DNA of 64,000 nucleotides from Bacilli bacterium (GTDB lineage Bacteria > Bacillota_I > Bacilli_A > RFN20 > CAG-826), in contig JAXFZD010000009.1 in NCBI GenBank assembly GCA_034185265.1, forward strand, positions 3,558-67,557, written 5' to 3'. Numbering within the stretch: the first letter of the stretch is position 1; every line of letters starts with the position of its first letter. The position numbers and the translations under genes are program-made. Positions 3,852 through 22,475 of the stretch are shown here, one piece after another. Under the pieces are notes generated by a model that was not told where the DNA came from, made no database searches, and was given only the letters and a program-made list of their open reading frames with translations.

Positions 3852-3900
3852 CTTGATTTGATTTTATCACATAGTGAGCCGCTATTCACTTCTATTTTAT

Positions 3901-3924
3901 AAAAAATAAGAGGAATATCCTCTC
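3901..3924 (-). terminator. Rho-independent terminator closing the leftward phage-like operon
   Basis: Minus strand: AGAGGA-tat-TCCTCT followed by TATTTTTT. Confidence 0.6.
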
Positions 3925-4016
3925 CAGGACACCCCCTATTTTTAAATTTCCCAGAATCATTTTCAAAACTCGAAAATTTGGCCTCGCGTATTTCTGAGGT
4001 GGGCTCACCGGTACTC

Positions 4017-4400
4017 CTAAATAGGTAGTTGAAGATGACCGGGGGGAGGGTCATTCAGCATTTTTATTGAAAACATTGCTTCAAATTTATCTACAGTCTC
4101 GCCTCTACCTTGGATGGTTGCGTGTTCAATAGAATAATTTTTAACAACGCATAAGGAAGAAATAATTATTAACATATTTGCTTCCGCTTGATTATCATCA
4201 TCTACGTATTCTTTGTAATAATTGATGTAGAATTCATTAATGCCTCTTTTATTAGCTTTAAGAATTGTTTTATAAATACTTTCAATTACCGGAATCTTTT
4301 TAGTGGTACCTGTGTAAGGATTTTTAATTGTAAGAATCATATTGCTACCGCTTTTTCTTCTTCCGGTAATAACACCAATGGCATCTTTACTCTTTATCAT
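4017..4400 (-). CDS. Hypothetical phage-like protein (127 aa)
   Basis: ORF overlaps the upstream gene by 14 nt in an operon. No recognisable motif. The last ~12 codons (DPPPGHLQLPI) run into unusually GC-rich sequence. Confidence 0.45.
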   Translation of the reverse strand: MIKSKDAIGVITGRRKSGSNMILTIKNPYTGTTKKIPVIESIYKTILKANKRGINEFYINYYKEYVDDDNQAEANMLIIISSLCVVKNYSIEHATIQGRGETVDKFEAMFSIKMLNDPPPGHLQLPI

Positions 4401-4728: not shown

Positions 4729-4746
4729 TTTTCATTTCCTTTCATA

Positions 4747-5340: not shown

Positions 5341-5520
5341 GCTGTAGTTATTCCTCCTAAAAACTGTAATTATTAACTTTATTCATTTCTTAGATGAAAC
5401 TTTTCTTCATCTATCACTAACCATTTAAATCTATGATTTATAAGCTAGTTAATTGTCCTATAGTGTCTATCCCTAATAACCGATAATATACATTAGAGGT
5501 ATTAAGACTATTTCTTATGA

Positions 5521-6291: not shown

Positions 6292-6463
6292 TAAACATAC
6301 CTCCTTCAATTAGCTTTTGAAGCGAGTCGCCAAAGACTCTCCACTGGGAGCCCACTTTAAAGGCATCGAGCTTCTTGGCTTTGATGTAGCGGATCACACT
6401 TCTACGGCATAGTCCAAGTATCTCCATTACTTCATTAACGGAATAAGTTACTTTGTAAACCAT
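6281..6463 (-). CDS. Excisionase-family / MerR-type HTH DNA-binding protein
   Basis: VMEILGLCRRSVIRYIKAKKLDAFKVGSQWRV matches the HTH_17 pattern. The ATG at 6463 overlaps the stop of the upstream gene; the alternative start is 6478. Confidence 0.55.
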   Translation of the reverse strand: MVYKVTYSVNEVMEILGLCRRSVIRYIKAKKLDAFKVGSQWRVFGDSLQKLIEGGMFNGN

Positions 6464-7197: not shown

Positions 7198-7198
7198 A

Positions 7199-8122
7199 TT
7201 ATTTGACCTCCTTATGAAATAGTTTTGATGAAACAACTAACTCAGAATCGTTCTCCTCGCGCTTGAGAGAATGATTGTAGATTTGTGTAGTTGATATATC
7301 CCTGTGACGTAGTACTTGTTGTGCTTCTTCTAAAGAACCACCACTACGAAGGATTTCGCTACAGACGAAATGTCTAAGTGAATGCGCGGACATATTTCTA
7401 TCTTCAAGTCCAGCTTCTAATAAGAAGTTTTTAATAACTTCTCTAATAGTCCTGGTTCTAATAGGATTTCCATATGAGTTATGCCCATGAGTGATAAACA
7501 ATGGCGCATATTCATCTCTACGATTAGCGAGATAAGTTTCGATGAAGTCAAAAACTTCATCTGATATCTTGACGTACTCAGATTTATCATCGCGGCCTTT
7601 ACCTCTTACATAGAGAATATGAGTATTGTTTATCTTTGATAAATCAGCAACTTCCGCTCTTTCAACTTCAATAGTTCTAAGGCCAGTAGTCGCGATAAGA
7701 GAGAGCATCGCATAGTTACGATAATCTTCTAATGAGCGATATGATTTCTCCTTAGCGATATTTATAAGCGCGGTAACATCATCTACATTAAGGACATCCC
7801 TTTTCATAACCTTAGTGGTTTTCATGGGATTTAATCCTCCAGAAATGTCTGGATAGATTTCTCTACCAGCTAGGTATCGGAAGAATCTATGAAGCACCAC
7901 TATGACCTTCTGAACCGAATTAGGTGACAGTCTTTTTGATAGCGATTCTTTATATTCGATTAAGTGTCTAGTCTTAGGCTTCATGATGTCATTAGCTCTA
8001 AGGTAGATAGAGAAATCCTTAAGGATTTGTTTATAAGATGATTTCGTTATCGCGGATCTATCGAGATCTAAGACGAATGAATCAATATCTTCTTCAAAGT
8101 AATCAATTACACCAGATTCCAT
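7199..8122 (-). CDS. Tyrosine recombinase/integrase (phage integrase family)
   Basis: SAM-like N-domain. Catalytic-domain motifs ATTGLRTIEV, HSLRHFVCSE and LRHRDISTTQIYNH (R..HxxR..H..Y). Confidence 0.85.
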   Translation of the reverse strand: MESGVIDYFEEDIDSFVLDLDRSAITKSSYKQILKDFSIYLRANDIMKPKTRHLIEYKESLSKRLSPNSVQKVIVVLHRFFRYLAGREIYPDISGGLNPMKTTKVMKRDVLNVDDVTALINIAKEKSYRSLEDYRNYAMLSLIATTGLRTIEVERAEVADLSKINNTHILYVRGKGRDDKSEYVKISDEVFDFIETYLANRRDEYAPLFITHGHNSYGNPIRTRTIREVIKNFLLEAGLEDRNMSAHSLRHFVCSEILRSGGSLEEAQQVLRHRDISTTQIYNHSLKREENDSELVVSSKLFHKEVK

Positions 8123-8292
8123 ATTTACCCTTTCCGGATATGAAGGGCGACTGGATTCAAATTAACAAGCTGAATAACATCTCCAATTTGCAAGTAAGGT
8201 TCGTCAACACTATTTGTTAAGTTCAAATTCATATCGTCACCTTCACACCCTTATACAAAGTTCATTAGATAGATAAGATTAAGATGAAGTAA

Positions 8293-8532
8293 TTAGTATT
8301 TTTCTTTATCCAGTTCTAATGAATCTTGGTATTCACATTCAAGTTTGTAAAAATCATCTAAAGAGATATCTAACGCTTTAGCGATTCTACCAACGATTAA
8401 GAAGGAAACCTTTCCACCTCTTTCACCACTTTCAATCATTGAGTAGTGTTGAAATGAGATACCAGCTTCCCTAGCAACCTTTCTTTGTGATAATCCTTTT
8501 TCAAGTCTTATATTTGACAAGTAAAGTCTCAT
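8293..8532 (-). CDS. XRE-family HTH transcriptional regulator (Cro/CI-like)
   Basis: MRLYLSNIRLEKGLSQRKVAREAGISFQHYSMIESGER. ATG at 8532 with GGAGG upstream; the ORF-track start at 8574 is less likely. Confidence 0.75.
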   Translation of the reverse strand: MRLYLSNIRLEKGLSQRKVAREAGISFQHYSMIESGERGGKVSFLIVGRIAKALDISLDDFYKLECEYQDSLELDKEKY

Positions 8533-8574
8533 AAAGTTACCTCCGTTTTTTTTCAGCCATTTTTCAACTGACAC

Positions 8575-8755
8575 CGCTATTTTAAATGGCTATATAAAAT
8601 GCGTAAATTTCACCCGAAAAAGTAAAAAATTACACACAAAGCTGGTGTGTGTTTATACAACAGTAACTATACAAAGTGGTCGATTTTGCAAAACATTAAA
8701 TGTTGTGTTTCTTTTCTTTTTGTTATAATTTTTATGAAAAAGATGGAGTAATTTT
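8575..8755. promoter_or_regulatory. Divergent (lysogeny-switch-like) control region between the two XRE genes
   Basis: Extended -10 TGTTATAAT (8721-8729) for the rightward gene. 13-bp palindrome AACATTAAATGTT (8692-8704). Inverted repeat ACACAC..GTGTGTG (8631-8653). Confidence 0.45.
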
Positions 8756-9712
8756 ATGAATGAAGATGAGAATTTAACTGGTAAAGTAGATGAACCAGTA
8801 GACGAAGCATCAAAGGAATCGGATTTAGGTTCTTTAATAAAACTAAGCGAAGAAGACATGAAAAAGATTATGTCTCCTATAATTGCCGCGATTAAATCTA
8901 TTAACGATACTGCGATAGAAGGCGATAAAATCATGTCTCCTATTATTGAATCTTCAAGAAAGATTAAAGACGCAATAGAAGCTATTAATTCTAGTGAAGG
9001 CATGAAAGCTTTAAGAGAAGCGATTAGGCCAATGTGCTATACAGGACTAAATTTAGATCCATATTGTAAGGCCTCTAAAATAACTAAAAAGACTCTAGCT
9101 CAAATAATGGATGTCAGTTATGAAACGCTTCGTAGATATGAAAACGCGATAAAAGTTCCTCAAATAGATTTTGTTATTAGATTATCTTTTATCTTAAACG
9201 CTCCACTAGATTCGCTTTTGAAAAGATCATCATCTTATGTCCTTCCTCAAAATGCAGGTGGATTTGAAATATATGGATATGATAAGGAAGACCGTTCTTA
9301 TAGAAAAACAGGGAGAATCGCGAGAATCGATGAGAACATCCCTAGCGATAAAGGTGCTTATAATGCGTTTGAATTAGCATCTGACTCTCCTTTACTAGGA
9401 GCGAAGAAAGGCGCGGTAGTTTTTCTAAAGAAATCTGATTGGTATCATGGAAAAGGTTTGTTCAATTCTGATAGACCTACATACGCTTTAATTGATAAGG
9501 AATATCAGAATAATAGGCTTGTCGCGATTGAGCCATGTTTTATAAAGATAGCTCCAGTAATTGATAGATCTGGCAATTTCCAAAACGAAAGTCATGGTAG
9601 TCGCTTCTTCAATTACATCAAACATATTGGAGGAGCGATATCCACTATTACTTATCGCGATTTAGAAGCCATGGTTTCATATATTGTAATTAAATCAGTT
9701 ACCGATTATTAA
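8756..9712 (+). CDS. XRE-HTH repressor-like protein with an extended N-terminus and a C-terminal CI/S24-like region
   Basis: HTH segment ITKKTLAQIMDVSYETLRRYENAIKVPQIDFVIRLSFIL. GGAG RBS. The N-terminus contains an internal ~20-aa duplication (KIMSPIIAAIKSINDTAIEG / KIMSPIIESSRKIKDAIEAI). Confidence 0.55.
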   Translation: MNEDENLTGKVDEPVDEASKESDLGSLIKLSEEDMKKIMSPIIAAIKSINDTAIEGDKIMSPIIESSRKIKDAIEAINSSEGMKALREAIRPMCYTGLNLDPYCKASKITKKTLAQIMDVSYETLRRYENAIKVPQIDFVIRLSFILNAPLDSLLKRSSSYVLPQNAGGFEIYGYDKEDRSYRKTGRIARIDENIPSDKGAYNAFELASDSPLLGAKKGAVVFLKKSDWYHGKGLFNSDRPTYALIDKEYQNNRLVAIEPCFIKIAPVIDRSGNFQNESHGSRFFNYIKHIGGAISTITYRDLEAMVSYIVIKSVTDY

Positions 9713-9845
9713 AAAAGAAAGACTTAGTCTTTAAAAAACGTCCACACTAGATAATTGCGAAAATCTATCCATGATGATAGTCTAGATTCGCAAGTAAGAT
9801 AACACTAAAGAATAACATCTCCTTGGAAACAGGGAGATTTTATTT

Positions 9846-10049
9846 GTGACAAAAGATACCAGCTACGAATTTGAAGTAGCGATATTAGATAAGCTATTAA
9901 AAGAAAAGAAAATCAGCTACCAGGAATGGTACGTTCTTTTAATTGAACTTTGTCATAAATATAACCTCCCTTGTATTAATAATATCAATTATATTGATAT
10001 TAAGTCAGTATTGAGGCAATATACACATGATGGCAAAGGAAGTAATTAA
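9846..10049 (+). CDS. Small hypothetical protein (67 aa) overlapping the start of the first serine recombinase
   Basis: GTG start with GGGAG upstream; 23-nt overlap with the next gene. No recognisable motif. Confidence 0.3.
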   Translation: MTKDTSYEFEVAILDKLLKEKKISYQEWYVLLIELCHKYNLPCINNINYIDIKSVLRQYTHDGKGSN

Positions 10050-11727
10050 AGTAGCGAGTCCCGCTCAATATATCGCCTCTACTGGTTTAGAAAATAAAAT
10101 GAAACGTGTAGCGGCATACGCACGAGTGTCTACTGATAGCGAGGATCAGATTCACTCTTTTAAAGCACAAATTGATGAATACACCTCTAAAATAACCAGT
10201 AATCCTAACTGGGAATTTGTTGGCATGTATTCTGATGAAGGTATCTCAGGTACTTCTTTAAAGAAAAGAGACGGACTTAATGCCTTATTAAAAGAAGTTA
10301 AGAAAGGTAATGTTGACCTAATTTTAGTGAAGTCTATTTCTAGATTAGGAAGAAATACGTTAGATATCCTCACCATTGTTAGAGAGCTTAGAGAAATTGG
10401 CGTGGAGATTAAATTTGAAAAGGAAAACCTTTCATCTTTAGATACCAGGACCGATATGGTCTTAACATTCCACTCCTCCATTGCTCAAGAAGAAGCAAAA
10501 AACATCTCCGATAACGTTAAATGGGGAATTAGAAAAAGGATGAGAGATGGTAACTGGAAAGTACCAACTGAGAAGTTCCTTGGTTATACCAAAGATGAAA
10601 ATGGGAACATGATAATTGATGAAACTCAAGCTGATATCGTTAGAGCCATCTTTAATCTTTATCTCGCTAATAAGTCAATAAAAGAAATAATCGCTTATTT
10701 AGAAGGTAACCACTACTTAACTGGTTCAGGTAAAGAAAAATGGAGCCGCCAAAACATCATGCAGATTCTCCAAAATGAGAAATACAAAGGTGACTTAATT
10801 CTTCAAAAGACTGTTGTTATTGATTATTTATCTCATGAGTCTAGAAGTAATAAAGATGGAAAATACGCGGACATGTGGTTAGTTAAAAACCACCACCCTG
10901 CCATTATTTCTAGAGAGGCCTTTGATTTAGTGCAAACCATCATTGAGTATAAAAAGAACGATAGATTCCTTAGACCTAATATAGGTGGCCCATTATCCAC
11001 CAAGCTTTATTGTGGCCTATGTGGGAGACCACTATTTTATCAATCAAGGTGTGATGGAAAGAACATGTTCAGTTGCAATGTGTCTAGAAGAAATCTCCAA
11101 AGGAACAAATGCGAACTATCGCCAATTCAAGAAGAAGATATAAATGCCATCTGCATCCAAGCGATGAAAGCATATTATTCTGATAATTCTCTTACCGCTA
11201 ATCTTTTAGATTGCTTAACTTCTCTTGGTGAGGCTTCTCACAAGCAAGAGGAACTTAACAGGGTTAAAGAAGAGATAACCACTACTGAAAATAGGCTCAA
11301 AGACATTATTGAGGAAAAGATGGAAACCGATTCTGAAGAAGACGATGAAAGATTATCTAACGAATATAAAGAAGCCAAGAAGCATTTAAATGATTTAAAG
11401 GCTAAATTAGACACTTTATCTGGTGAAACATATCAATCCTTTATCTCCGAAGCTAGAAACAAGGAAATCGCCTCTTTAATAACAAATATGGATAACGATG
11501 AATGCTACTTAAAACTTATCGATGAAGTAATCGTTAATGAAGATAACTCTATCATCATAATCGATAATGCTGGTCACCACGTTTCTAAAGAAAACATCAG
11601 CAAAAACATCAAAAAGATAAACGGCTTAGAAGAAGTCATGTATGGTTACTACACTTCTCCTATAACCACTAAAGTTTTTAAATACAAAATTGTAAGATTG
11701 GAGGATTACCCATGGCTCAAGAAATAA
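10027..11727 (+). CDS. Large serine recombinase (resolvase/invertase N-domain + recombinase domain + zinc ribbon + coiled coil)
   Basis: RVAAYARVSTDSEDQ..S (catalytic Ser region), LILVKSISRLGRN, zinc ribbon CGLCGRP..C..C, C-terminal coiled coil. Confidence 0.9.
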   Translation: MMAKEVIKVASPAQYIASTGLENKMKRVAAYARVSTDSEDQIHSFKAQIDEYTSKITSNPNWEFVGMYSDEGISGTSLKKRDGLNALLKEVKKGNVDLILVKSISRLGRNTLDILTIVRELREIGVEIKFEKENLSSLDTRTDMVLTFHSSIAQEEAKNISDNVKWGIRKRMRDGNWKVPTEKFLGYTKDENGNMIIDETQADIVRAIFNLYLANKSIKEIIAYLEGNHYLTGSGKEKWSRQNIMQILQNEKYKGDLILQKTVVIDYLSHESRSNKDGKYADMWLVKNHHPAIISREAFDLVQTIIEYKKNDRFLRPNIGGPLSTKLYCGLCGRPLFYQSRCDGKNMFSCNVSRRNLQRNKCELSPIQEEDINAICIQAMKAYYSDNSLTANLLDCLTSLGEASHKQEELNRVKEEITTTENRLKDIIEEKMETDSEEDDERLSNEYKEAKKHLNDLKAKLDTLSGETYQSFISEARNKEIASLITNMDNDECYLKLIDEVIVNEDNSIIIIDNAGHHVSKENISKNIKKINGLEEVMYGYYTSPITTKVFKYKIVRLEDYPWLKK

Positions 11728-13364
11728 TTCAAATTAATAAAGCTACCCCGGTTGGTAAAAGAAGAGTATGTGCTTATACACGCGTTTCTTCTAAAAGCGA
11801 AGACCAGGAGAATTCTCTCACTTATCAAATTGAAGCTTACACCAAGATGATCATGACAAATCCTAGCTATGAGTTCTGCGGTGTTTTCGTTGATGATGGA
11901 GTAACTGGTACTTCTATTTATAAAAGAAAAGAGTTCCAAAAGATGATAGATAAAGCCCTAAGTGGTCAAATTGATTTAATCATCACTAAATCCTTATCTA
12001 GATTCTCTAGAAATACTGAAGATGCGATTAATATCTTAAGAGTTCTTAGGAATAACAATGTGGAAGTCTATTTTGAAACAGAGAATGTTTCTTCCTTTAA
12101 TATGGATAGCGAATTAGTCATTAACGTATTAAGTGCTCATGCCGCTAATGAATCGAAAGTCATCAGTGATAATGTTAGGATGAGCTACGCTAAAAACTTT
12201 AAAGATAAAAAGGCCTACTTCAATCCTGAACAGCTATATGGTTATCATCGCGGTAATGATGGAAGCATTGTTATCGATGAAAAAGAAGCTGAGGCAGTTA
12301 GACTAATCTATGACCTTTATTTAAAGGATTACACTAGACAGGCAATTATTGATGAGCTAGATAGGAGAGGACTAAAACCTAGATTCACTAAGAAATGGAC
12401 ATTCCAGGCATTTAGAAAAATACTTCATAACGAGAAACACATGGGTGCCGCTTATCTTCAAAAAACATTTGTTAAAGGAGTAAGAGGAAAACGACTTAAA
12501 AACGATGGAACGCTACCTACTATTCTAATTGAGAACAATCATCCCGCGATAGTCAGTAAAGAAGTATGGATGGCTGCTAATGAAAAGCTCAAACAAAAAG
12601 CAATTAAATATCAAAGTCAGGTTCAATATGATGAAAAGCGAGAGGGTAAAATCTGTTTTAATAAGAGCATTTATTCTGGTCTATTTATGTGTGGAAAGTG
12701 TGGTAAAAACTATAATTTCAAAATAAACAATAGAGGCAAGGCATCAGAGTCAAGAATCTTCCACTGTGCATCAAATCGAGAAAGAAAGATTTGTGAGAAT
12801 GATGATCTTCCTTTAGATGTTATCGATATCATTACTCTTAAGGTTGTAAACAAGATTATCACCAATAAAAAGAACTTCTTTGACTTGCTAGAGGAATCAT
12901 TCAATTCTAAAAATGATGTAGAGAAAAAGAAGAAAGAAATACAGGAATTGCAAGAAAAAATAGATGTTTTACAGGCAAAATTCAAAAAGTACAAAGATAT
13001 CGATGATGAGTTTTATCGCGAGGTCAATAAGGCTTATAAGGAGAAGCTTAAACCTCTATGCATGAAGAAAGTAGCCCTTGAGAATTCAATAAACACCGCT
13101 ACTAGCGTTAACGATTATCTCTATCAATTTAAAAAAGTCCTATCACCATACGATAGAACCATTTCTTCTTTAATCGACTTTCCGCTTAATAAAGTATTTA
13201 GTAGGGTAATCATACACGATAGAGATCATATCACTTTTGTTCTTGGGGAAGCTGGTGATATTTCCACCATCACTTCTATGGATGATGACATCCTAATTCA
13301 AACAGAACCATACCTAATTAGAAAAACAAAACATCTGCTTAAATACGGAATCTATATCAACTAG
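11712..13364 (+). CDS. Large serine recombinase, second copy, translationally coupled to the first
   Basis: RRVCAYTRVSSKSEDQ, LIITKSLSRFSRN, zinc ribbon CGKCGKN..C..C, coiled coil. GGAGG RBS and 16-nt overlap with the upstream gene. Confidence 0.9.
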   Translation: MAQEIIQINKATPVGKRRVCAYTRVSSKSEDQENSLTYQIEAYTKMIMTNPSYEFCGVFVDDGVTGTSIYKRKEFQKMIDKALSGQIDLIITKSLSRFSRNTEDAINILRVLRNNNVEVYFETENVSSFNMDSELVINVLSAHAANESKVISDNVRMSYAKNFKDKKAYFNPEQLYGYHRGNDGSIVIDEKEAEAVRLIYDLYLKDYTRQAIIDELDRRGLKPRFTKKWTFQAFRKILHNEKHMGAAYLQKTFVKGVRGKRLKNDGTLPTILIENNHPAIVSKEVWMAANEKLKQKAIKYQSQVQYDEKREGKICFNKSIYSGLFMCGKCGKNYNFKINNRGKASESRIFHCASNRERKICENDDLPLDVIDIITLKVVNKIITNKKNFFDLLEESFNSKNDVEKKKKEIQELQEKIDVLQAKFKKYKDIDDEFYREVNKAYKEKLKPLCMKKVALENSINTATSVNDYLYQFKKVLSPYDRTISSLIDFPLNKVFSRVIIHDRDHITFVLGEAGDISTITSMDDDILIQTEPYLIRKTKHLLKYGIYIN

Positions 13365-13390
13365 GGGATAAACAATATCCTCTTTTTTTA
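13363..13390 (+). terminator. Rho-independent terminator after the recombinase pair
   Basis: AGGGGATA-aacaa-TATCCTCT followed by TTTTTTT. Confidence 0.6.
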
Positions 13391-13400
13391 TGAGAGCAAA

Positions 13401-13500
13401 TTCGTGTACGGACAATTGGACTTTAAAACATATTAGGGTGCCGACAATTGGAGACATCATCGATGAAATATCCCCAAGGATTTTGTCCAAGGGGATTTTT
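13401..13500 (+). repeat. Cassette-boundary repeat copy R1
   Basis: Box a GGACAATTGGA (13410-13420), box b CGACAATTGGAGACAT (13442-13457), 32 bp apart. Followed by hairpin TCCCCAAGG..CCAAGGGGA and a T-run (13471-13500). Confidence 0.9.
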
Positions 13501-14764
13501 AAATGCCAATCATATAAATTGGACAATACCAGTTGTCTGCATTTATTGGAAACAAATCTTCTCGAGAATCAATCACTATTCCTTTTGAAACTGGCTTTCC
13601 ATATTTTTTTAAGAAATTAAAGTTAAAATTATTGCTTACTGGATTGATGCCTTTTTTAATTTCGATCGGAGATATATGGTCCACATAATCAATGATTAAA
13701 TCAGCTTCTTTTTTATCCTTATCGCGATAATAATAGAAATTTCTTCTATAATCCACACCAGCATTTATGTAGCTTTTAATAATTTCACTAACAGCATATG
13801 TTTCGTAAAAAGCACCATTCATTACACCGTTTTCAAGCATTTCGACATTTGGCCATTTACATAAATATGCACACAAGCCAGTATCCATGAAGTAAAACTT
13901 AGGGGCTTTGGTTATTCTATCAGACATATTTTTTGCATATGGTTCTAACAAAATAGCAATTCCCGAAGTAACTAAAATAGAAATCCAGTTTTTAACAGTT
14001 CTCACATCAATACCTATATTTCTCGAAATATCATCATAATTGATTTGTTGGGCGGTTCTTAAAGCCATATAATCTAAAAATCTTAAGAAGTCACCTTCTT
14101 TATCTACATTAATTATCTTTTTGACATCTTTTTCGATATATGTGGCAATATAAGAACTAAAGAAAGTATCTCTGTTTAAATCTTTAGCAATATATTCAGG
14201 CATTCCACCTTTAAATATTCTTTCAAAGATTTCCTTGCGATTGCGATAAAGATTTTTGTCTTTGACTTTGGCGTATTTTTCTTTCAAACAATCTAAATCA
14301 GGGTTAAAAATGTTTCCGTCTATTTCTTCTTCTAACTCATTATTTGCTAGCGATGCCATATTCAATATTGCAGTACGACCTGCCAGTGATTCAGATACCA
14401 TGTTTTGTAATTCAAACTGATTGGAACCAGTTAAAACATACATGAGTGGAACTGGCACATTGTTTTGCAAACATTTATTCTTTTCGCTATCCACCACTAC
14501 TTTGATTGCATCTAAAAGAGGTGAGGCTTTTTGTATTTCGTCGATAATAATTGGCCAAGGATGTGCTTCTAAAAAGAGCTTTGGGTTTTTATTTGCCAGC
14601 GTTCTATTTTCCAAATCATCCAAAGAAACAATGCCCATTTCTTTTCCGAAAACTTTACCAGCAGTTGTTGTCTTTCCGACCTGTCTAGCACCATAAATAG
14701 TGATGACAGCATATTCGTTTTTTATCTCATTGAGTTTTCTTTCAATTGTTCTAATATATTCCAT
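13499..14764 (-). CDS. AAA ATPase with C-terminal DUF4143-like domain
   Basis: Walker A GARQVGKTT, Walker B PIIIDEIQ, C-terminal ..FYYYRDKDKKEADLII.. pattern typical of DUF4143 proteins. ATG at 14764 (GAGG upstream) preferred over the TTG at 14773. Confidence 0.75.
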   Translation of the reverse strand: MEYIRTIERKLNEIKNEYAVITIYGARQVGKTTTAGKVFGKEMGIVSLDDLENRTLANKNPKLFLEAHPWPIIIDEIQKASPLLDAIKVVVDSEKNKCLQNNVPVPLMYVLTGSNQFELQNMVSESLAGRTAILNMASLANNELEEEIDGNIFNPDLDCLKEKYAKVKDKNLYRNRKEIFERIFKGGMPEYIAKDLNRDTFFSSYIATYIEKDVKKIINVDKEGDFLRFLDYMALRTAQQINYDDISRNIGIDVRTVKNWISILVTSGIAILLEPYAKNMSDRITKAPKFYFMDTGLCAYLCKWPNVEMLENGVMNGAFYETYAVSEIIKSYINAGVDYRRNFYYYRDKDKKEADLIIDYVDHISPIEIKKGINPVSNNFNFNFLKKYGKPVSKGIVIDSREDLFPINADNWYCPIYMIGI

Positions 14765-14840
14765 ATGATTCAACCTCGATCATATAATACAACATATTTT
14801 CGACCAAAACAACAGTGCAATGCTATTTTAGTCGAAGTAG

Positions 14841-14960
14841 TATGTTTATCGACAATTGGATTTTGAAATGTATTCATTCATCGACAATTGGAGACATCGA
14901 TTTGAAACTTCCCCCAAAATTTCGCCCAAATCAGGGTAAAATGGAAGGGGGGTTTTATTT
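14841..14960 (+). repeat. Cassette-boundary repeat copy R2
   Basis: Box a CGACAATTGGA (14850-14860), box b CGACAATTGGAGACAT (14882-14897), 32 bp apart. Followed by a C5..G6 hairpin and TTTTATTT (14909-14960). Confidence 0.9.
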
Positions 14961-15046
14961 ATGCCAAACAATACTCTTAAATACACCCGAGCGGAAATTG
15001 TCAAGACACGTACAAATTGTATATGTCTTTTTTATCTTATATACGT

Positions 15047-15338
15047 AAATGTCGTTAAATAACACCCCAGTATGAAAAATCCCATCTATGATAGACGGCA
15101 GGTTCATTTCCCAAGGACAGCAAAAGACAGCTTTTAGGCTAATTTAGATATTTCTTTTGAATATGGAAGCAAGTCATCAATCGACTTATTTTTTATATTC
15201 TCTAAAACATATTTGATGTATCGATATGGATCTAACCCATTTGTAATCGCAGTTCTTATAATTGATAATAGTTTAACTGTGTAAATAGCCCCAGCCTCAC
15301 TTCCAGAAGTTTGAAATACTTTCCTATTGATGCGATAA
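15047..15338 (-). pseudogene. IS66-family transposase C-terminal remnant plus probable terminal inverted repeat
   Basis: Minus-strand frame 15338-15134 reads NRKVFQTSGSEAGAIYTVKLLSIIRTAITNGLDPYRYIKYVLENIKNKSIDDLLPYSKEISKLA*, the conserved IS66 Tnp C-terminus. GTAAATGTCGTTAAATAACACCCC at 15047 resembles the GTAAGCG-type IS66 end. There is no upstream coding sequence. Confidence 0.65.
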
Positions 15339-15359
15339 TTTTAAAAGAGGTATTTTGGT

Positions 15360-17177
15360 ATGAAAATAGAAGATATTAAGAAATATCAATTAGATGGATA
15401 TTTTACTTTAAACGAAGATGGAGAGGAACTTGAAGATTTTACAAAAATCAAGCTTATCGAATTTTGCGCACAAGATATCCAAACTATTATTCGTTATCGT
15501 TATGGCATGCCAGAATTATTAGCAAGGATCAAAAAAGATGATGATGAACTTCTGATGGCTAAATATAGTGAAAAATATCACATCACTCCAGAAGACTTCT
15601 TGGTTAGATTTGAATTTGAAAACAACAATGAAAATGGCTTTGATTACGACGACATCTATAGTTGGAGTTACTCAGTGAACATTAAAGGAGTTACATCTCC
15701 TAATCTTGATGATAAATCACTAGAAGATTATAAAGATGTAACTGATTATCTTTTTGAAAATGACGATCATTTGCTAAAACATTGTATTAGAAAAATTAGA
15801 ATCATGAATTCTGATAAACCACAAAAAGAGTGGGAAGAATTGAATTCATTTTTAAAAGATATTATTGAACAAAATAAATTGCCAAGAAATCAAAGAACAT
15901 ATAAAGATTCCACCTTATCTCAAATACTTTATGAAATGTCTGCTGCATCATCATTTAATATTAAAACAAATGATGAATTTAATAGTTTTTATCACACAAA
16001 TGTTGAAAGGCTTGCTAAACAGGGAAATTACACTTGTATGAGACTTCTCGGATATAACTATTATGAAGGAGATGGCGGATTCCCTCTTGACCCAAAACAA
16101 TCTTTATATTGGTTAGAAAAGGCTTATCAAATTTCTCAAGACCCTGATTTGGCTAGAACCATCGGTTATATTTATTATTATGGAAGAACTACAGATGGAG
16201 TGCCTCAAGGAGATAAAGCATTTCAATATTTTGCGATTGGGCATTTCGCCGGTGGTTATTATGAAGCCACTTATAAATTAGCAGATTGTTATTTGAAAGG
16301 ATATGGTACTCCAGTTAACGAACAGGCTGCGTTCAATTTGGTAAGCAGCATATTCAAAGCAACTCAAGATAATTATTTATCTGGTGAAGATAGTAAATTT
16401 GCCGATGTTGCTTTAAGAATTGGTTCATATTTCAAAGATGGAGTTTATGTTGATAAGGATTTAATTATTGCTCAAGGTTGCTTACTTCAAGCAAGAGACG
16501 CAATTAAGACTCGTTTAGAGAATATGGAATATGTTGGTGATAGAAGCGTTGCTCTTTCTATATCGAAAGCTCTAAATGAAGTAGAAAAAGAATTACATAT
16601 AAAAGATAGAACTATTGTTAATAAAGGTTATGAATTGTTTGACTTAAATAATACATTTAAAGACTATGAAATCAGATTAAAAAAGTTACCAGATAATAGC
16701 ATTGAAGTAACCATTAAACCAAAAAAAGAAGACAGTAAATACATAATACCTATTTGGGAAAATCTTTCATACACCGAAAGGGCTGAAAGTATAAAATTGG
16801 TTCTAAAAAATAATTATATAAACGATAAAACTTTCAAAGATCATTATGATAAGAAGTGGCAAGCAATAGATTTCTATGGTAAGGAGATCTATTTATCAAG
16901 AAGTAAAGATGACTTTGTAATGTTGAGAGCAGAGCATATCATTTACATTCCACAAAAAATCAAAAAGTTAGGTAAAGATTATAAGATGGTCTCGGTCGAG
17001 TTTTATCCTGGTTCCAAACAATATGATTATTATTGTGAATTTGAAACCAAAGTAGGAGATATCGTTAAAGTTTATTCAAATGGTGAAAAGAAAGAGGCTC
17101 GAATCGTTTCAATTAAGATAGTTTATGAAGATCAGCTTCCATTACCAATGCAAAAGCTTTCGAAAGTATATAGATAG
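15360..17177 (+). CDS. Sel1-like repeat (SLR/TPR-like) protein with unknown N- and C-terminal domains
   Basis: 605 aa. Central repeats LAKQGNYTCMRLLGYNYYEGDGGFPLDPKQSLYWLEKA, ..YYEATYKLADCYLKGYGTPVNEQAAFNLV. AGAGG RBS. Confidence 0.6.
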   Translation: MKIEDIKKYQLDGYFTLNEDGEELEDFTKIKLIEFCAQDIQTIIRYRYGMPELLARIKKDDDELLMAKYSEKYHITPEDFLVRFEFENNNENGFDYDDIYSWSYSVNIKGVTSPNLDDKSLEDYKDVTDYLFENDDHLLKHCIRKIRIMNSDKPQKEWEELNSFLKDIIEQNKLPRNQRTYKDSTLSQILYEMSAASSFNIKTNDEFNSFYHTNVERLAKQGNYTCMRLLGYNYYEGDGGFPLDPKQSLYWLEKAYQISQDPDLARTIGYIYYYGRTTDGVPQGDKAFQYFAIGHFAGGYYEATYKLADCYLKGYGTPVNEQAAFNLVSSIFKATQDNYLSGEDSKFADVALRIGSYFKDGVYVDKDLIIAQGCLLQARDAIKTRLENMEYVGDRSVALSISKALNEVEKELHIKDRTIVNKGYELFDLNNTFKDYEIRLKKLPDNSIEVTIKPKKEDSKYIIPIWENLSYTERAESIKLVLKNNYINDKTFKDHYDKKWQAIDFYGKEIYLSRSKDDFVMLRAEHIIYIPQKIKKLGKDYKMVSVEFYPGSKQYDYYCEFETKVGDIVKVYSNGEKKEARIVSIKIVYEDQLPLPMQKLSKVYR

Positions 17178-17225
17178 GCGTCGTATCTGCTGTAGATAAT
17201 TCCTCTATTCTACTAACCAACTTGT

Positions 17226-17313
17226 GTGTGCCGACAATGGACTTTGAAACAGTTCGTGTGCGCGGACAATTAAAGACAAATCAAATCAAATAGTCCCAAG
17301 AAATTGGGATTTT
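17226..17313 (+). repeat. Cassette-boundary repeat copy R3 (most degenerate)
   Basis: Box a CGACAATGGA (17232-17241), box b GGACAATTAAAGACA (17264-17278), 32 bp apart. Followed by hairpin TCCCAA-gaaa-TTGGGA and TTTT (17294-17313). Confidence 0.8.
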
Positions 17314-17390
17314 ACTTGAAAAAAACAACGCTTATATTATAATATACTCGAAAGTTAGTAACTTTAAAGTATATAAAGGAGGTTTTGACA

Positions 17391-18749
17391 ATGTTTGTTG
17401 GAAGAGAAAAAGAATTAAAACAACTAAATAGCGCTTTTTCATCACAAAATAAAGAATTAGGTATTATTTATGGTAGGCGTAGAATTGGAAAAACAAAACT
17501 CATCGATCAATTTGTGAAAGACAAACCGCATTTGTTTTATCAAGCGAAAGAGGACAGTTCGTATGGCAATCTACGCTCATTTTCTTATGAATTAAATAAA
17601 TTAATGTCTTTGCCTTTGGATTTCGTGTATTCAAGTTGGCAAGCTGCATTAGATGCTTTATCTAACTATTTTAATGGCTCTAGATTTATTTTATGTATTG
17701 ATGAATATCCATTTATCACTAAACAGGATAAGTCTTTCTCGTCTATTGTTGAAGAATTTTACGATCATTCAAATGATAATTTAATGCTATTAATCTCTGG
17801 CTCCGATGTATCTTTCCTCAAAAAAGAGATTAGAAACAAAAAATCACCATTATATAAAAGGAAGACATTTGAGATGAATGTTCAAAAACTTCCATTAGAG
17901 GAGGCTCTACAATTCTTTAATGGTGTTGATAAAGAAACAATATGTTCTTTTCTTTCAATAATGTCAACTTTCCCTTATTACTTATCTGCAATCAATACAA
18001 ATAATACTTTTGAAGATGAAATAAAAAGGTTAGTAATAAACGAATATGGCCCTTTTTTCAATCTTCCAGAAAACGTTTTATCAAAATCAAACAAACCAGA
18101 TATTTATAATGCTATTCTATTTGCAATCGCCAATAGAAAAACAAATATATCAAGCATCTCTTCATTCATTAAAGAAGAAACAGGAAAAGTATCTAAATAT
18201 TTAACAACTCTTTTGGAGTCAGAAGTAGTCGGAAAAAGAACAACATTTAATGGAAACAAAAAGAACAATTATTATGTAATAACAGATCCTCTTCTTAAAT
18301 TTTGGTATAAAGCAGTATACCCAAATCAAAGCAGAATTATTATCAATCCAGATATGATTTTTGATGAAATAAAAGTCGACTTAAAACAGGCTGTCGAATT
18401 TGGGTTTGAAGACGTATCTTTACTATATCTCAATAAACTTAATAGAACCGGAAAGCTTGGTCGCGTTTATCCAGAAATCCAAACATTCAAAGCAGATAAT
18501 ACGAGATTGGGCAGATTCGTAGAAATAGATGGTTTGGCCGAGCAGGATGGCCATTTATTAGTGGTCGAATGCAAATATAGAAAAGAAAAATTTACAATAG
18601 AAATGTTTGAGCACCTTAAAGAAAGCGATTCTATATTTAATAAGAACCTCATAAGGGAATACTATCTATTTTCCAAATCTGGTTTCGATGAACAATTAAA
18701 AGAATCAATTAACGTTAAGTTAATCGATTTAAGTATCTTGTTCTCATAA
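17391..18749 (+). CDS. ATPase of the archaeal-ATPase/DUF234 type (STAND-like)
   Basis: MFVGREKELKQL..GIIYGRRRIGKTKL (Walker A), FILCIDEYP (Walker B), C-terminal DUF234-like region (EIDGLAEQDGHLLVVECKYR). ATG at 17391 with AGGAGG 9 nt upstream. Confidence 0.7.
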   Translation: MFVGREKELKQLNSAFSSQNKELGIIYGRRRIGKTKLIDQFVKDKPHLFYQAKEDSSYGNLRSFSYELNKLMSLPLDFVYSSWQAALDALSNYFNGSRFILCIDEYPFITKQDKSFSSIVEEFYDHSNDNLMLLISGSDVSFLKKEIRNKKSPLYKRKTFEMNVQKLPLEEALQFFNGVDKETICSFLSIMSTFPYYLSAINTNNTFEDEIKRLVINEYGPFFNLPENVLSKSNKPDIYNAILFAIANRKTNISSISSFIKEETGKVSKYLTTLLESEVVGKRTTFNGNKKNNYYVITDPLLKFWYKAVYPNQSRIIINPDMIFDEIKVDLKQAVEFGFEDVSLLYLNKLNRTGKLGRVYPEIQTFKADNTRLGRFVEIDGLAEQDGHLLVVECKYRKEKFTIEMFEHLKESDSIFNKNLIREYYLFSKSGFDEQLKESINVKLIDLSILFS

Positions 18750-18752
18750 TTC

Positions 18753-18858
18753 ATTACTCGACAATTGGACATTAATTGTATTCATTCATCGACAATTGGA
18801 GAAACGATTGATTATCGAGACACCTACGTAAAAGTGCGTGTTTTTTTCTTTTTTTTGG
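18753..18858 (+). repeat. Cassette-boundary repeat copy R4 (includes a terminator-like hairpin)
   Basis: Box a CGACAATTGGA (18759-18769), box b CGACAATTGGAGAAAC (18790-18805), 31 bp apart. Imperfect hairpin CACCTACG..GTGCGTG followed by T7CT8 (18821-18856). Confidence 0.9.
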
Positions 18859-18913
18859 CATTATTTGCTATATTTGGTTTGTGAATTAAACTTTATTCAA
18901 TTTGTAACTGGAC

Positions 18914-18953
18914 ATATAAAAACCCCGTGAAAAACTGGACGGACACGAGGTTT
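18914..18953 (-). terminator. Rho-independent terminator of the DUF4417/toxin-like/immunity-like operon
   Basis: Minus strand: AAACCTCGTG..CACGGGGTTT followed by TTATAT. Confidence 0.55.
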
Positions 18954-19007
18954 AAACTTACATAGTTATTCTAGGCTTCGACAAACATGCAGAATCTGCT
19001 TGCAAGT

Positions 19008-19469
19008 TTATTTGTTCTCTTCAACAGCTGTTTTTAATTTCTCATCAGTATATGGGTTGGCATCGAAATATTCATCTTGCTTAACAATTCCAGCTTTAAT
19101 TAAAAGCTCAATATAAATTGAATCATATGTTTCAAACATCATTTCCTCATCTTTAGAAGCAGGATCGCTATCTAATGATAATTCTAATCTATTTAATAGT
19201 AGTCCAAGGAAAGGATATGGGTCTGATGCTTTTAAACAGTGACCATCAAAATTGTAAAACGCTATCATAAAATTCCATGCGTCACGTCTACCATTTATTG
19301 AATTCTTTAAATATTTAAACCACTCATCAAAGACAACTTGGTCACCATATTCTGCGATTAATTGCTTTGCAATTTCTAGTAAACGATCAACTTCATCGTC
19401 TGAATAGTCGCTTTGAAAATTAATACTAAATAATTCTTTATTAATATTTTCATCGTATTCGGTTTTCAT
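19008..19469 (-). CDS. Acidic 153-aa protein, immunity-protein-like
   Basis: ORF 2 nt downstream of the toxin-like gene. Acidic, helical, no signal peptide. The call is by context only. Confidence 0.4.
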   Translation of the reverse strand: MKTEYDENINKELFSINFQSDYSDDEVDRLLEIAKQLIAEYGDQVVFDEWFKYLKNSINGRRDAWNFMIAFYNFDGHCLKASDPYPFLGLLLNRLELSLDSDPASKDEEMMFETYDSIYIELLIKAGIVKQDEYFDANPYTDEKLKTAVEENK

Positions 19470-19471
19470 AA

Positions 19472-20017
19472 TTAATTACCTCCTTTAAAATTAGGTGATT
19501 TAGGATATTTTGCAAATGCTTCATGAGCCCATTTAATTGATTTTGAATTTGGTCGATAATGACCACTTCTATCATCATATGAGACAATTTGACCACGTTT
19601 TACAACTAGTATTCCTGCCATCCTCACTTTCGGGTCCGTACCACCTATCAAAGTAGGATGCGGAGTAGGAAGAGCACCTAGCGCACGGCCATTTCCATTT
19701 CTGTTTCCAATTATAACTTCACCTTTGGTTGTGATTACATATGGTAGAATCATAGATCCATTGCGACCTCCAATGTATTTACCATCATAAATGGACTCTA
19801 GTGTTTTTGCTGTCGGGTTCATCGAATATCCAATACCTGGCTTATAAACACCATATTTGATATCTTTTTTCATCATTTTGGCGTAAACGGAATACTCTTT
19901 TTGATAGGGCTGAGAGTTTCCGCCTAGGGGCGATAAAGAATAAAAGCTGCAACTTCCTCCAGAACCACCACCAGAGAAATTTGAGAATAAAGGACTACTA
20001 CCCTTCATCGTTATCAC
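19472..20017 (-). CDS. 181-aa protein with a Gly/Ser-rich N-terminus and a conserved-looking C-terminal domain (candidate toxin module)
   Basis: NFSGGGSGGSCS linker, then ..PTPHPTLIGGTDPKVRMAGILVVKRGQIVSYDDRSGHYRPN. Overlaps the upstream gene by 20 nt. The family was not identified. Confidence 0.4.
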   Translation of the reverse strand: MITMKGSSPLFSNFSGGGSGGSCSFYSLSPLGGNSQPYQKEYSVYAKMMKKDIKYGVYKPGIGYSMNPTAKTLESIYDGKYIGGRNGSMILPYVITTKGEVIIGNRNGNGRALGALPTPHPTLIGGTDPKVRMAGILVVKRGQIVSYDDRSGHYRPNSKSIKWAHEAFAKYPKSPNFKGGN

Positions 20018-20702
20018 CTTCAGAAAGTCTGCGCTCCCTATCTTTAGCGTTTTCTTTCATTGTGTAAGAATCATAAGGATAAATAGGAATTCCCTTTAAT
20101 CTTACATAAGCAAATATCTCATCAGGAACTGGCCCATACACACAAATTCCAGTAGGCTCTAATGTGTCTACTATTTTTTGAACTTGTTCCGCAAAGATGT
20201 TGCGATTATCAGTTCTTTTGATAAATCCATTAGTGCCAATAGCAATTAATGTATGATGAGGATATGCCTCGAGAGAAGATAATGTTCTGTTGTCACCTAG
20301 TCTAACATTTGGGACGACTTTAATACCTTGAGAACCATAATAATAGGTTATTCCTAGATTTAATCCTATTTGGCTCTTTTGAACCCAAAGTGGCATATTA
20401 TCGTAAGGACTTGCATCAACACCAATTATCAATCCATATTTTCTTAACTTTTCAGTATAAGCTTTTGGGTTACCTAAAATTGGTTGAAACGCTGGATCGT
20501 TGCAATAAAATGACATTCCAGTTTCAGATGGATTCGTAACATCGCATCTTCTATCCCACTGAATTATTTCTTTTGGAGGCTCAGTGGCAACCATCCATTC
20601 CTCAATTATTGCGAAACCATCGGTTTCGGTTCGTCCAGCTCCGTCAATGAGGTAGGCGAGATAGACGTCCCTGATATAGGGAGATTTTGGTTTTCGTAAC
20701 AT
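19998..20702 (-). CDS. DUF4417-like protein
   Basis: 234 aa. The FYCNDPAFQPILGNPKAYTEKLRKYGLIIGVDASPYDNMPLWVQKSQIGLNLGITYYYGSQGIKVVPNV pattern matches my recollection of DUF4417 proteins. Confidence 0.5.
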   Translation of the reverse strand: MLRKPKSPYIRDVYLAYLIDGAGRTETDGFAIIEEWMVATEPPKEIIQWDRRCDVTNPSETGMSFYCNDPAFQPILGNPKAYTEKLRKYGLIIGVDASPYDNMPLWVQKSQIGLNLGITYYYGSQGIKVVPNVRLGDNRTLSSLEAYPHHTLIAIGTNGFIKRTDNRNIFAEQVQKIVDTLEPTGICVYGPVPDEIFAYVRLKGIPIYPYDSYTMKENAKDRERRLSEGDNDEG

Positions 20703-20867
20703 AAATCAATTTTTACCTTTTTACGGTTTTGCCGTGTATTTAAAATTGAGATATGCTACTATTTATTTGGTGATTGCTAATTCAGCATATCTCTAATCGT
20801 AACCATTCGCACTGGTTGCGATTTTTTAGCAAATGTGTTCATTCTGTTCATACATCCTCCTTTTTTA

Positions 20868-21284
20868 CTATTCTCTCATATTCTCATACCTACCACCTCC
20901 ATTCAAAAACTCGTCTTCAACATCATTAGATGTTTTAACTTCAATATTGTTCATAACGCATTTCTTTTGTAATGTTTTATCATCAGTGATGAGGCAATAT
21001 CCGTCGATAAAAGCATATGCCATACATAAACAATCATAAGTAGATAAAGATTCGTATTTTAGAGCAAATTCACTTGTTTTGGCTATTATCTCATCTTTAT
21101 CATTTGTAATTACAGTTACTGATTTTCTGACAATTTCAGCCAATTCATCTGGCTTAATTAATTCGCCTATTATTTGAGTTTCAGAAATATAAAATTGGTC
21201 TTTATATTGCGATAAAGAACCAAGTTTGCCATCTTGGTAAAAAGTTATTAGAAAACATGAGTCGCAATATAAAAATTTCTTCAT
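20868..21284 (-). CDS. PIN-domain-like protein (putative toxin ribonuclease)
   Basis: 138 aa. N-terminal FLYCDSCFL (Asp), ..LSTYDCLCMAYAF.. and CLITDDKTLQKKC match PIN acidic-residue spacing. The start lies 1 nt after the stop of the upstream gene. Confidence 0.55.
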   Translation of the reverse strand: MKKFLYCDSCFLITFYQDGKLGSLSQYKDQFYISETQIIGELIKPDELAEIVRKSVTVITNDKDEIIAKTSEFALKYESLSTYDCLCMAYAFIDGYCLITDDKTLQKKCVMNNIEVKTSNDVEDEFLNGGGRYENMRE

Positions 21285-21285
21285 A

Positions 21286-22335
21286 TTATTCTGTCCTCAT
21301 ATTTTGCATTACATCATAAAGCGGAACATGCAAAAATTCTGCCGCTCTAGAAATTGTTATTAATTCTTCAGATAAAGCTAAATACACTTGTTGGGTAAAA
21401 ATTGTTGGCTTTTCAGAGTCCTTAACAGAATCTAAAAGTGTTTTTTCCATTTTTCTGCCACCATTTCTATTTAAGAAAATAAAGTAGTTTTTGTGGTACG
21501 TTTCCGTAATAACACCTGTTTCTAAAAGTCTATTTAATAAACAAGAAGGAGCAATTTTATATTGCTTAGCAATTTCATTTCTAAGATATGTTGTTATATT
21601 TCTATTTGTTTTACCAAATATAGAATAAATATCTTCATCGGGAATTAAAACATTACCTGCGACTTGGTTGATATATTTTTCAACATCTTTTTCCGACATG
21701 TTTTCTTCAGAATTATTAAAGAATAAATGACACGTTTCGTGAATTAAGGTGAATCTTTGTCTTTCAATTGTTCTAATTTTGGAATTGAAGAATATATAAG
21801 GAATGCCGTTTACCAATCCATTAATTCCGTCAATTTCATCAGAGCACTCAAAAGAAAGAATGATGATACCTGCATGTTCTAAAACATTAGTAACAGAATA
21901 AATTGGTCCAGAAGATGGGAGACCCAGAATAGATCTTATTATTTTGGCGTTATTAGAAGCAATATTATTAAAAGATAGTTTTTTAGCCTTAAAAATTTTA
22001 AAATTCAGCAAACCAACAATATTCATCAAAGCAACACGCTCAAAACATTTATTTTCAATTTCACTTTTTAAAAGTTCGATATCATTTTTTGAGGCTTTTT
22101 GTTTTTTTCTAAAACTGACATGATTAAAAACCAAATTACTATTATTTCTAGAAAGTAATTCAGTCCATGGAATATCTAAAGCATTAGCGATATTTTTGCA
22201 AATATCAATGTTTGGCTCCCTTTCTTCATTTTCATATAAAGAAATAGCAGCTTTAGTGCATCCAATTGCTTTAGCAAGCTCTTCAGTTGTCATTCCTTTT
22301 TTTAAACGGTAATACTTGATTTTTTTGCCAATCAT
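21286..22335 (-). CDS. Fused XRE-HTH / ImmA-IrrE (COG2856) zinc metallopeptidase
   Basis: MIGKKIKYYRLKKGMTTEELAKAIGCTKAAISLYENEER (HTH) and FTLIHETCHLFF (HExxH). ATG at 22335 with GAGGTG RBS; the ORF-track start at 22389 is unlikely. Confidence 0.8.
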   Translation of the reverse strand: MIGKKIKYYRLKKGMTTEELAKAIGCTKAAISLYENEEREPNIDICKNIANALDIPWTELLSRNNSNLVFNHVSFRKKQKASKNDIELLKSEIENKCFERVALMNIVGLLNFKIFKAKKLSFNNIASNNAKIIRSILGLPSSGPIYSVTNVLEHAGIIILSFECSDEIDGINGLVNGIPYIFFNSKIRTIERQRFTLIHETCHLFFNNSEENMSEKDVEKYINQVAGNVLIPDEDIYSIFGKTNRNITTYLRNEIAKQYKIAPSCLLNRLLETGVITETYHKNYFIFLNRNGGRKMEKTLLDSVKDSEKPTIFTQQVYLALSEELITISRAAEFLHVPLYDVMQNMRTE

Positions 22336-22359
22336 ATTCTTCACCTCTGTAAACATTTT

Positions 22360-22388
22360 ATCATATTTTTTTATTTTGTTAACAGTCA
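22360..22388 (-). promoter_or_regulatory. Candidate promoter of the XRE-ImmA/PIN operon
   Basis: Minus strand: TTGACT (22388-22383), 17 nt, TATGAT (22365-22360). Confidence 0.45.
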
Positions 22389-22410
22389 ATTATTGTGAGT
22401 GAAAAAAATT

Positions 22411-22475
22411 GTCCGTGAATCGACAGTTGACCTTAAAACCATGTCCGTGTATCGACAATTGGAGACATAGAGAGT
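22411..22475 (+). repeat. Cassette-boundary repeat copy R5 (last copy, abuts the core genes)
   Basis: Box a CGACAGTTGA (22421-22430), box b CGACAATTGGAGACAT (22453-22468), 32 bp apart. Both boxes are preceded by GTCCGTG. Confidence 0.9.

Follow-up and report, generated by a model that had tools for sequence, protein, structure and literature searches.

A repeat-bounded array of four cassettes carrying candidate defence genes beside two large serine recombinases in a rumen bacterium

Background

Integron cassettes are known to serve as banks of defence genes (10.1101/2024.07.02.601686), and the integron in this role is taken, by analogy, as the closest functional analogue of the locus described here. 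The locus lies in a window of 64,000 nucleotides (nt), this being the whole stretch of DNA analysed (assembly GCA_034185265.1, contig JAXFZD010000009.1, positions 3,558 to 67,557 of the forward strand). Positions 13458-22413 of the window correspond to the cargo of a mobile element that spans about 18.6 kb (~3,900-22,470) in a rumen bacterium; the element is composed, in this order, of a satellite-like backbone, two large serine recombinases (LSR1 and LSR2) and four cassettes (C1 to C4), bounded by direct repeats.

As in an integron, a recombinase gene stands beside an array of small cassettes, which are flanked by recombination-site repeats, are exchanged one at a time and include many compact defence-type genes. 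In place of an IntI tyrosine recombinase, however, two large serine recombinases adjoin the array; the sole tyrosine recombinase of the element (7199-8122) is found 5 kb from the array. Each site consists of two direct boxes and a terminator hairpin, whereas the sites of integrons are attC hairpins formed by imperfect inverted repeats. C1, C2 and C3 have promoter-like sites of their own, whereas integron cassettes are promoterless and read from Pc, and the arrays observed here are short, with 1-4 cassettes each.

The staphylococcal cassette chromosome (CcrAB/CcrC) shares with this locus the paired large serine recombinases, the addition in tandem of units flanked by direct repeats and the presence of some units lacking a recombinase. 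It differs in the recombinases themselves, since the NCBIfam models CcrC/CcrB/XisF gave at best 117 and 108 bits versus cut-offs of 900, in the size of the units (1.4-3.6 kb here versus tens of kb) and in the repeat; moreover, no rlmH target was seen here. RmrA-type ImmA antitoxins of Rosmer pair with varied toxins, PIN-like ones included (PMC10440598). Cassette C4 resembles such RosmerTA units in having a helix-turn-helix (HTH) and M78 peptidase protein that matches RmrA, directly followed by a putative small toxin, but its PIN protein matches no RmrT model and three extra genes (DUF4417, p181 and p153) are apparently co-transcribed. The single-gene candidate families PDC-S01 and PDC-S27 of PADLOC are matched over the full length of their models by C1 and C3; no published activity or mechanism was found for either in the literature searched. 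Defence hotspots of phage satellites (P4-like elements and phage-inducible chromosomal islands) also combine a satellite-like backbone with a variable defence-type region beside the integration machinery, whereas the variable region is here split into repeat-bounded cassettes, which are also found without the backbone. No description of serine-recombinase-linked cassette arrays of this kind was found, an absence that is tentative, as the literature search was limited.

On the basis of family matches and gene neighbourhoods, most of the cargo probably serves conflict with phages or plasmids, a reading to which a probability of roughly 0.6 is assigned. It is possible, with the odds rather against it, that the double-box array is a serine-recombinase counterpart of the integron, circulating self-expressed and mostly single-gene immune modules (Fic, DUF4143, DUF234) across 13 or more genera of Firmicutes from rumen and gut.

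Direct repeats and cassette exchange

The four cassettes are bounded by five direct repeats of ~55 nt, all in one orientation, so that the term "cassette", already used in the original prediction, is well founded. Each repeat contains two 11-nt boxes of the CGACAATTGGA type, a and b, placed about 32 nt apart, and bears a terminator-like hairpin. The repeats, located by a repeat search, and the adjoining recombinases, assigned by their domains, are listed below.

13403..13457, plus strand: repeat R1, with a hairpin and a T-run after it
14843..14897, plus strand: repeat R2
17225..17279, plus strand: repeat R3, the most degenerate copy
18749..18802, plus strand: repeat R4
22414..22468, plus strand: repeat R5, the last copy
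10027..11727, plus strand: LSR1, 566 amino acids (aa), with Resolvase, Recombinase and Zn_ribbon_recom domains
11712..13364, plus strand: LSR2, 550 aa, with its stop codon ~40 nt before R1

The repeat was found in 47 of the 401 genomes of the same family, corresponding to 13 of its 48 genera; a control performed with the reversed pattern gave no match. Orthologues of LSR2, with 96-98% identity, are present in 4 other genera. The repeat and the stop codon of the orthologue are mostly ~50 nt or less apart, and up to ~0.5-1.5 kb apart in two genomes. Many genomes contain repeats and cassettes with neither recombinase nor backbone nearby. Next to repeats in two genomes (G184:C12, 2015-3488, and G265:C18, 29048-29221), fragments of LSR2 with 85-88% identity are found, some of them containing stop codons; they appear to be decayed platforms.

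The cassettes are units of exchange: the same cassette is found in other genera, next to other neighbours, with homology ending at the repeats. A 97% identical copy of C1 is present in G257:C23 and a 94% identical copy of C2 in G183:C14, while C3 has copies of 93% identity in G311:C20 and 98% in G257:C23, all of them with different neighbours. In pairwise DNA alignments, the homology of C3 begins directly past box b of the repeat upstream of it, and that of both C2 and C3 stops where box a of the next repeat downstream is reached, the sequences being unrelated outside these limits. Alternative joints were also found in metagenome contigs of other studies, where the recombinase end is joined to R2 in the absence of C1 (two runs), box a of R2 is joined to box b of R5, or C1 follows a C3-type repeat. 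The sides of these joints match over short stretches of 21-52 nt; the joints show that other organisms have the cassettes arranged differently, and do not document excision in the genome analysed here. Samples of sheep and goats, from two studies, contain the array in full. One goat sample seemed to have lost C2 (joint of 14901 to 17294), a reading that was discarded, as this joint actually belongs to contig C21 of the genome analysed here, where a second locus with the repeat is found.

This sixth copy of the repeat (C21, 1620-1680) is preceded by a 411-aa DUF4143-type ATPase, at the beginning of the contig, and followed by a gene that is apparently chromosomal (1776-2843). It looks like an orphan cassette, because no second recombinase pair is present in the genome. 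A terminator-like segment of ~80 nt of the same contig (C21:180-260) is also found at positions 18870-18957 of the window. Scanning the array for structured RNAs with Rfam produced only a spurious microRNA match on a terminator hairpin.

Candidate defence genes in the cassettes

The domain content originally proposed for the cargo, as well as for the AAA_13 and AlbA_2 genes found on the other side of the element, was reproduced by Pfam in all its calls. The content of the first three cassettes is as follows.

13499..14773, minus strand: C1, AAA_14-DUF4143 ATPase (Pfam AAA_14 and DUF4143, 5.7e-40)
15360..17177, plus strand: C2, Sel1-repeat protein of 605 aa (Pfam)
17385..18749, plus strand: C3, ATPase_2-DUF234 ATPase (Pfam)

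Each unit had been described as a single-gene module with its own promoter, ribosome-binding site (RBS) and terminator. This holds for C1, C2 and C3, each of which shows one gene, a promoter-like site, an RBS and a hairpin, but not for C4, which is probably an operon of 5-6 genes.

Three of the four cassettes (C1, C3 and C4) match PADLOC models. At the level of single proteins, matches were obtained by C1, C3, the XRE-ImmA protein of C4 and the flanking AAA_13 ATPase, and none by the Sel1 protein, the PIN protein and the last three genes of C4. C1 matches PDC-S01 (2.7e-86) over residues 4-421 of 424, and C3 matches PDC-S27 (5.5e-52) over residues 1-422 of 454. Motifs read from the sequence include, for C1, a Walker A GARQVGKTT, a Walker B IIIDEIQ and a C-terminal D...E-x-K, and, for C3, a Walker A GRRRIGKTK, a Walker B and a C-terminal EIDG...VVECK. 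The likely start of C1 is the ATG at 14764; that of C3 is the ATG at 17391, which follows AAGGAGG and a promoter-like site at 17316-17343 with 11/12 matches. A 16-pair hairpin (14799-14836, minus strand) lies in the leader of C1, between the promoter-like site and the start codon. Both proteins are single polypeptides in which an AAA+ ATPase is combined with a C-terminal domain bearing a PD-(D/E)xK-like motif, and may act as ATP-driven sensors or switches controlling a nuclease.

A census was taken of 34 open reading frames (ORFs) from repeat-bounded intervals of 14 related loci; Fic/SoFic, DUF4143 and DUF234 genes predominate in this wider pool. It includes 6 Fic genes (PDC-S04; one of them SoFic, 3.6e-36), 3-4 DUF4143, 2 DUF234 and 1 Sel1 gene, in addition to one unit composed of HTH, M78 and DUF4417 genes. 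About 10 of the ~12 well-bounded single-gene cassettes match the PADLOC models Fic/SoFic, PDC-S01 or PDC-S27.

Composition of cassette C4

The genes assigned to C4 are listed below in the order in which they are read.

21286..22389, minus strand: XRE-HTH fused to an ImmA/IrrE (M78) metallopeptidase (Pfam HTH_3 and Peptidase_M78)
20868..21284, minus strand: PIN-like protein (weak PF01850 match, 9e-4)
20777..20851, minus strand: possible 24-codon ORF with a strong AAAGGAGG RBS, a speculative call read from the sequence between PIN and DUF4417
19998..20702, minus strand: DUF4417, a strongly conserved alpha/beta protein (Pfam, 3e-24; phrog_8680 and phrog_940)
19472..20017, minus strand: p181, a conserved small protein, candidate effector or toxin, with no family match
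19008..19469, minus strand: p153, an acidic small protein, candidate immunity protein or partner, third gene of the trio, with no family match

XRE-ImmA, PIN, DUF4417, p181 and p153 probably form one unit. The gap of 165 nt between PIN and DUF4417 contains no promoter-like site, no minus-strand terminator and no repeat, and C4 therefore looks like a single operon; the trio DUF4417-p181-p153 likewise has no promoter-like site of its own. In locus L075, a 69-aa ORF is found at the position matching that of the 24-codon ORF.

XRE-ImmA, whose likely start is near 22335 and whose metallopeptidase motif is HETCH, is matched by the PADLOC model for RmrA of Rosmer (1.6e-37, residues 15-344) and by phrog_2439 (2.4e-51); the NCBIfam match to the spr1629-family antitoxin is below the cut-off of that model. 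The PIN gene starts 1 nt past the XRE-ImmA stop codon, and the acidic residues D8, E35, D84 and D101/102 can be read from its sequence.

The DUF4417 protein is probably an enzyme. Relatives number 470, the best 120 of these 470 having 73-96% identity. Its model has a predicted local distance difference test (pLDDT) score of 82, and the fold search returned weak TIM-barrel-like matches only (E >= 0.02, template modelling score <= 0.41), by which its assignment as a nucleotide-processing enzyme of the Rossmann/SLOG type was rejected. The alignment of p181 with its relatives, at least 180 and none with a Pfam domain, reveals the invariant motifs RNGNG, TPHPTLIGG and SGH(Y/F)(K/R)PN. The AlphaFold2 model of p181 has a pLDDT above 90 over most of residues 41-180; with this confident model, the best Foldseek match in PDB had an E of 0.34, and an HNH/EndoVII-type or other known toxin fold was rejected. 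The search in BFVD gave two unnamed weak matches only, a PDB sequence search gave nothing useful, and no homologue of p181 was found in the phage collection. p153 had no match in the Pfam, PADLOC, PHROG and NCBIfam scans; its homologues (18-68% identity) always follow homologues of p181. The relatives of p181 found are stand-alone proteins of 113-193 aa, with a disordered Gly/Ser-rich N-terminus, and none has the delivery domain expected of a polymorphic toxin-immunity pair; the search for them admitted only proteins between 0.55 and 1.75 times the length of the query.

The trio is a conserved operon of three overlapping genes in 8 other contexts. In 3 independent ones an HTH + M78 pair is placed directly upstream of the trio, and a fourth case, in which the pair is upstream of DUF4417, is provided by a cassette of the related array L034 (G122:C63, 10824-15089) made of HTH, M78 peptidase, DUF4417, two overlapping small genes and an IS3-type transposase. 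L034 was discarded as a variant of the full trio, only DUF4417 being common to both. As the two partner genes of L034 are unrelated to p181/p153, DUF4417 seems to pair with interchangeable two-gene partners. In one metatranscriptome contig, DUF4417 is 93% identical and the p181/p153 region is largely replaced. Metatranscriptome contigs from ruminant gut contain relatives of XRE-ImmA, PIN and DUF4417 with 93-99% identity, and one of them spans the XRE-ImmA/PIN junction; being assembled contigs, for which DNA carry-over is possible, they are weak evidence of expression.

Taken together, these features would fit one inducible operon, in which the RmrA-like XRE-ImmA protein would repress or neutralise the other products. 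A phage or stress cue might lead its HExxH protease to remove this control, with release of the PIN RNase and of a DUF4417/p181 effector pair, p153 acting as the protective partner. C4 may represent an undescribed inducible multi-effector system, a proposal that is part of the integron-counterpart reading and is held just as tentatively.

Weighing the defence role of the cargo

If a defence island is defined by validated defence genes in the immediate neighbourhood, such genes are found here: a dGTPase to the left of the window, a SoFic-type Fic in a related array, and type I restriction-modification genes beside homologues of the trio. The neighbours of the trio also include a ResIII/methylase/CTD11 conflict system, DUF4143 and ATPase_2 ATPases, HipA, MazE and RhuM. 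In a survey of rumen genomes, PDC-S01, SoFic, PDC-S27 and PDC-S04 are among the commonest defence calls, the PDC families being candidates (PMC13356809); a serine-recombinase counterpart of the integron could explain why these families are at the top of rumen defence censuses.

Several observations weigh against a defence role. PDC-S01, PDC-S27, PDC-S04 and PDC-S06 are candidate families and not validated systems, and their abundance could equally mark selfish mobile genes. The Sel1 protein of C2 has no PADLOC match, two of its relatives are located amid housekeeping genes (PolC, carbonic anhydrase, glycosyltransferases, TetR), and no defence gene was found near these two; a defence role finds no support for this cassette. 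The PIN protein has no PADLOC match even at E 0.1, RmrT models included. Remote homologues of DUF4417 occur in 273 phage records, often beside or fused with DNA methylase annotations, in agreement with the ParB-DUF4417 fusions reported in prophages (10.1101/2025.10.10.680097), so that a phage-side or counter-defence role is possible. The effector roles of p181 and DUF4417 are guesses, because neither shows a recognisable catalytic fold, and the neighbourhood sample, 9 contexts without a background control, is small. Related arrays also hold a 5'-nucleotidase, an ABC/FtsX transporter with TMEM164, a glycosyltransferase and a Na/H exchanger, and the census additionally includes a methionine ABC transporter and insertion-sequence genes. 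Of the predicted location next to defence genes, examples are seen for the trio, placed beside restriction systems, and none for the two relatives of Sel1; the description of the cargo as a defence or conflict island fits most of it, by candidate families and neighbourhoods, with the Sel1 cassette left out.

The mixed cargo of the related arrays, insertion-sequence genes among it, and the housekeeping surroundings of the Sel1 relatives would be expected if the array simply gathered any small self-expressed gene, the cargo having no common function and its defence look being due to broad PADLOC candidate models. This is rather unlikely, given the large share of well-bounded single-gene cassettes that match Fic/SoFic, PDC-S01 or PDC-S27, the dGTPase and PDC-S06 genes in the flank and the restriction systems adjoining the trio. 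The cargo might instead be devoted mainly to addiction or stabilisation, its toxin-antitoxin-like units and selfish ATPase-nuclease genes making loss harmful and holding array and element in place, with no role against phages, like the toxin-antitoxin cassettes of large chromosomal integrons. The layout of C4 is indeed toxin-antitoxin-like, HipA and MazE genes are found near trio homologues, and the whole array is intact in the sheep and goat samples of the two studies. However, C1, C2 and C3 have no antitoxin partner, and the existence of contigs lacking C1, or lacking C2-C4, indicates that loss is tolerated; a mainly stabilising role is for these reasons rather unlikely, stabilisation and defence being in any case compatible.

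A service to the satellite-like backbone, by which the cargo would interfere with helper or competing phages and satellites at induction and would give no general protection to the host, is very unlikely. The Pfam and PHROG calls of the backbone (small terminase, DnaD-like loader, Bro/KilAC antirepressor and tyrosine integrase, with no capsid or tail gene in it) compose a phage-satellite-like gene set, and relatives of DUF4417 are common in phages. Against such a service stand the many genomes in which repeats and cassettes have no recombinase or backbone nearby, and the trio homologues located far from any phage-like gene. A role of most of the cargo in phage or plasmid conflict is the preferred reading; the observations on which it is based are the gene content, the repeat structure, the exchange of whole cassettes, the family matches and the neighbourhoods, from which the biochemical activities, and the anti-phage role itself, are inferred.

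If the cassettes protect their hosts, the array would represent a second route by which immune genes are banked and traded, cassette by cassette, driven by serine recombinases and independent of integrons, in a phage-rich ecosystem. C1 to C4 are short, self-contained test pieces, and could settle whether the abundant PDC-S01 and PDC-S27 families are real defence genes. The locus also points to a conserved system composed of a switch plus DUF4417, with central proteins of no known fold, and its layout recurs beside restriction systems.

Other features of C2, the element ends and the flanks

The Sel1 repeats of C2 are confined to residues ~215-330 according to Pfam, and the Sel1 matches in PDB cover residues 216-327 only; no Pfam family was assigned to the N-terminal ~210 aa and the C-terminal ~270 aa. 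About 100 relatives of the same length were found in gut and rumen samples. The 460-nt leader of C2 contains a transposase remnant, in a segment that is absent from the G183 copy. This remnant, together with the left end of the element and the genes preceding it in the window, is listed here.

15137..15310, minus strand: remnant of the C-terminus of an IS66-family transposase in the C2 leader (DDE_Tnp_IS66_C, 3.9e-10)
3890..4055, no strand assigned: left end of the element, a conserved end segment common to related elements (DNA search)
1-1980, minus strand: AAA_13 ATPase, outside the element (Pfam; PADLOC PDC-S06, 1.4e-33)
2463-3851, minus strand: Schlafen-like protein with SLFN_AlbA_2, HATPase_c_4 and winged helix-turn-helix domains, outside the element (Pfam)

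DNA homology with related elements begins at ~3890-3970, and the conserved end segment proper corresponds to 3970-4055; it is kept in at least 6 related elements with otherwise different interiors, and may act in cis, as an attachment site or otherwise. An attachment core common to both ends of the element was looked for and discarded, as they share no 9-mer of note.

Because homology to related elements starts only at ~3890-3970, the AAA_13 and AlbA_2 genes, originally described as lying on the other side of the element, are not part of it. Further to the left, beyond the window (C9:98-2857), a tyrosine recombinase of 308 aa and an HD-domain protein matching the PADLOC dGTPase model (1.4e-36) are found; dGTPase, AAA_13 and AlbA_2 are a separate small defence-type island beside the element. 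The full AAA_13 gene, as present on the contig (C9:3372-5537), encodes 721 aa. At its C-terminus, R-x-x-x-E (MRRVLES) and a downstream His (SQSHEAA) resemble, by eye, the triad of the PrrC/RloC anticodon nucleases; the PADLOC PrrC match of this protein is restricted to the ATPase part. At the opposite end of the element, large surface-protein genes are found beyond R5.

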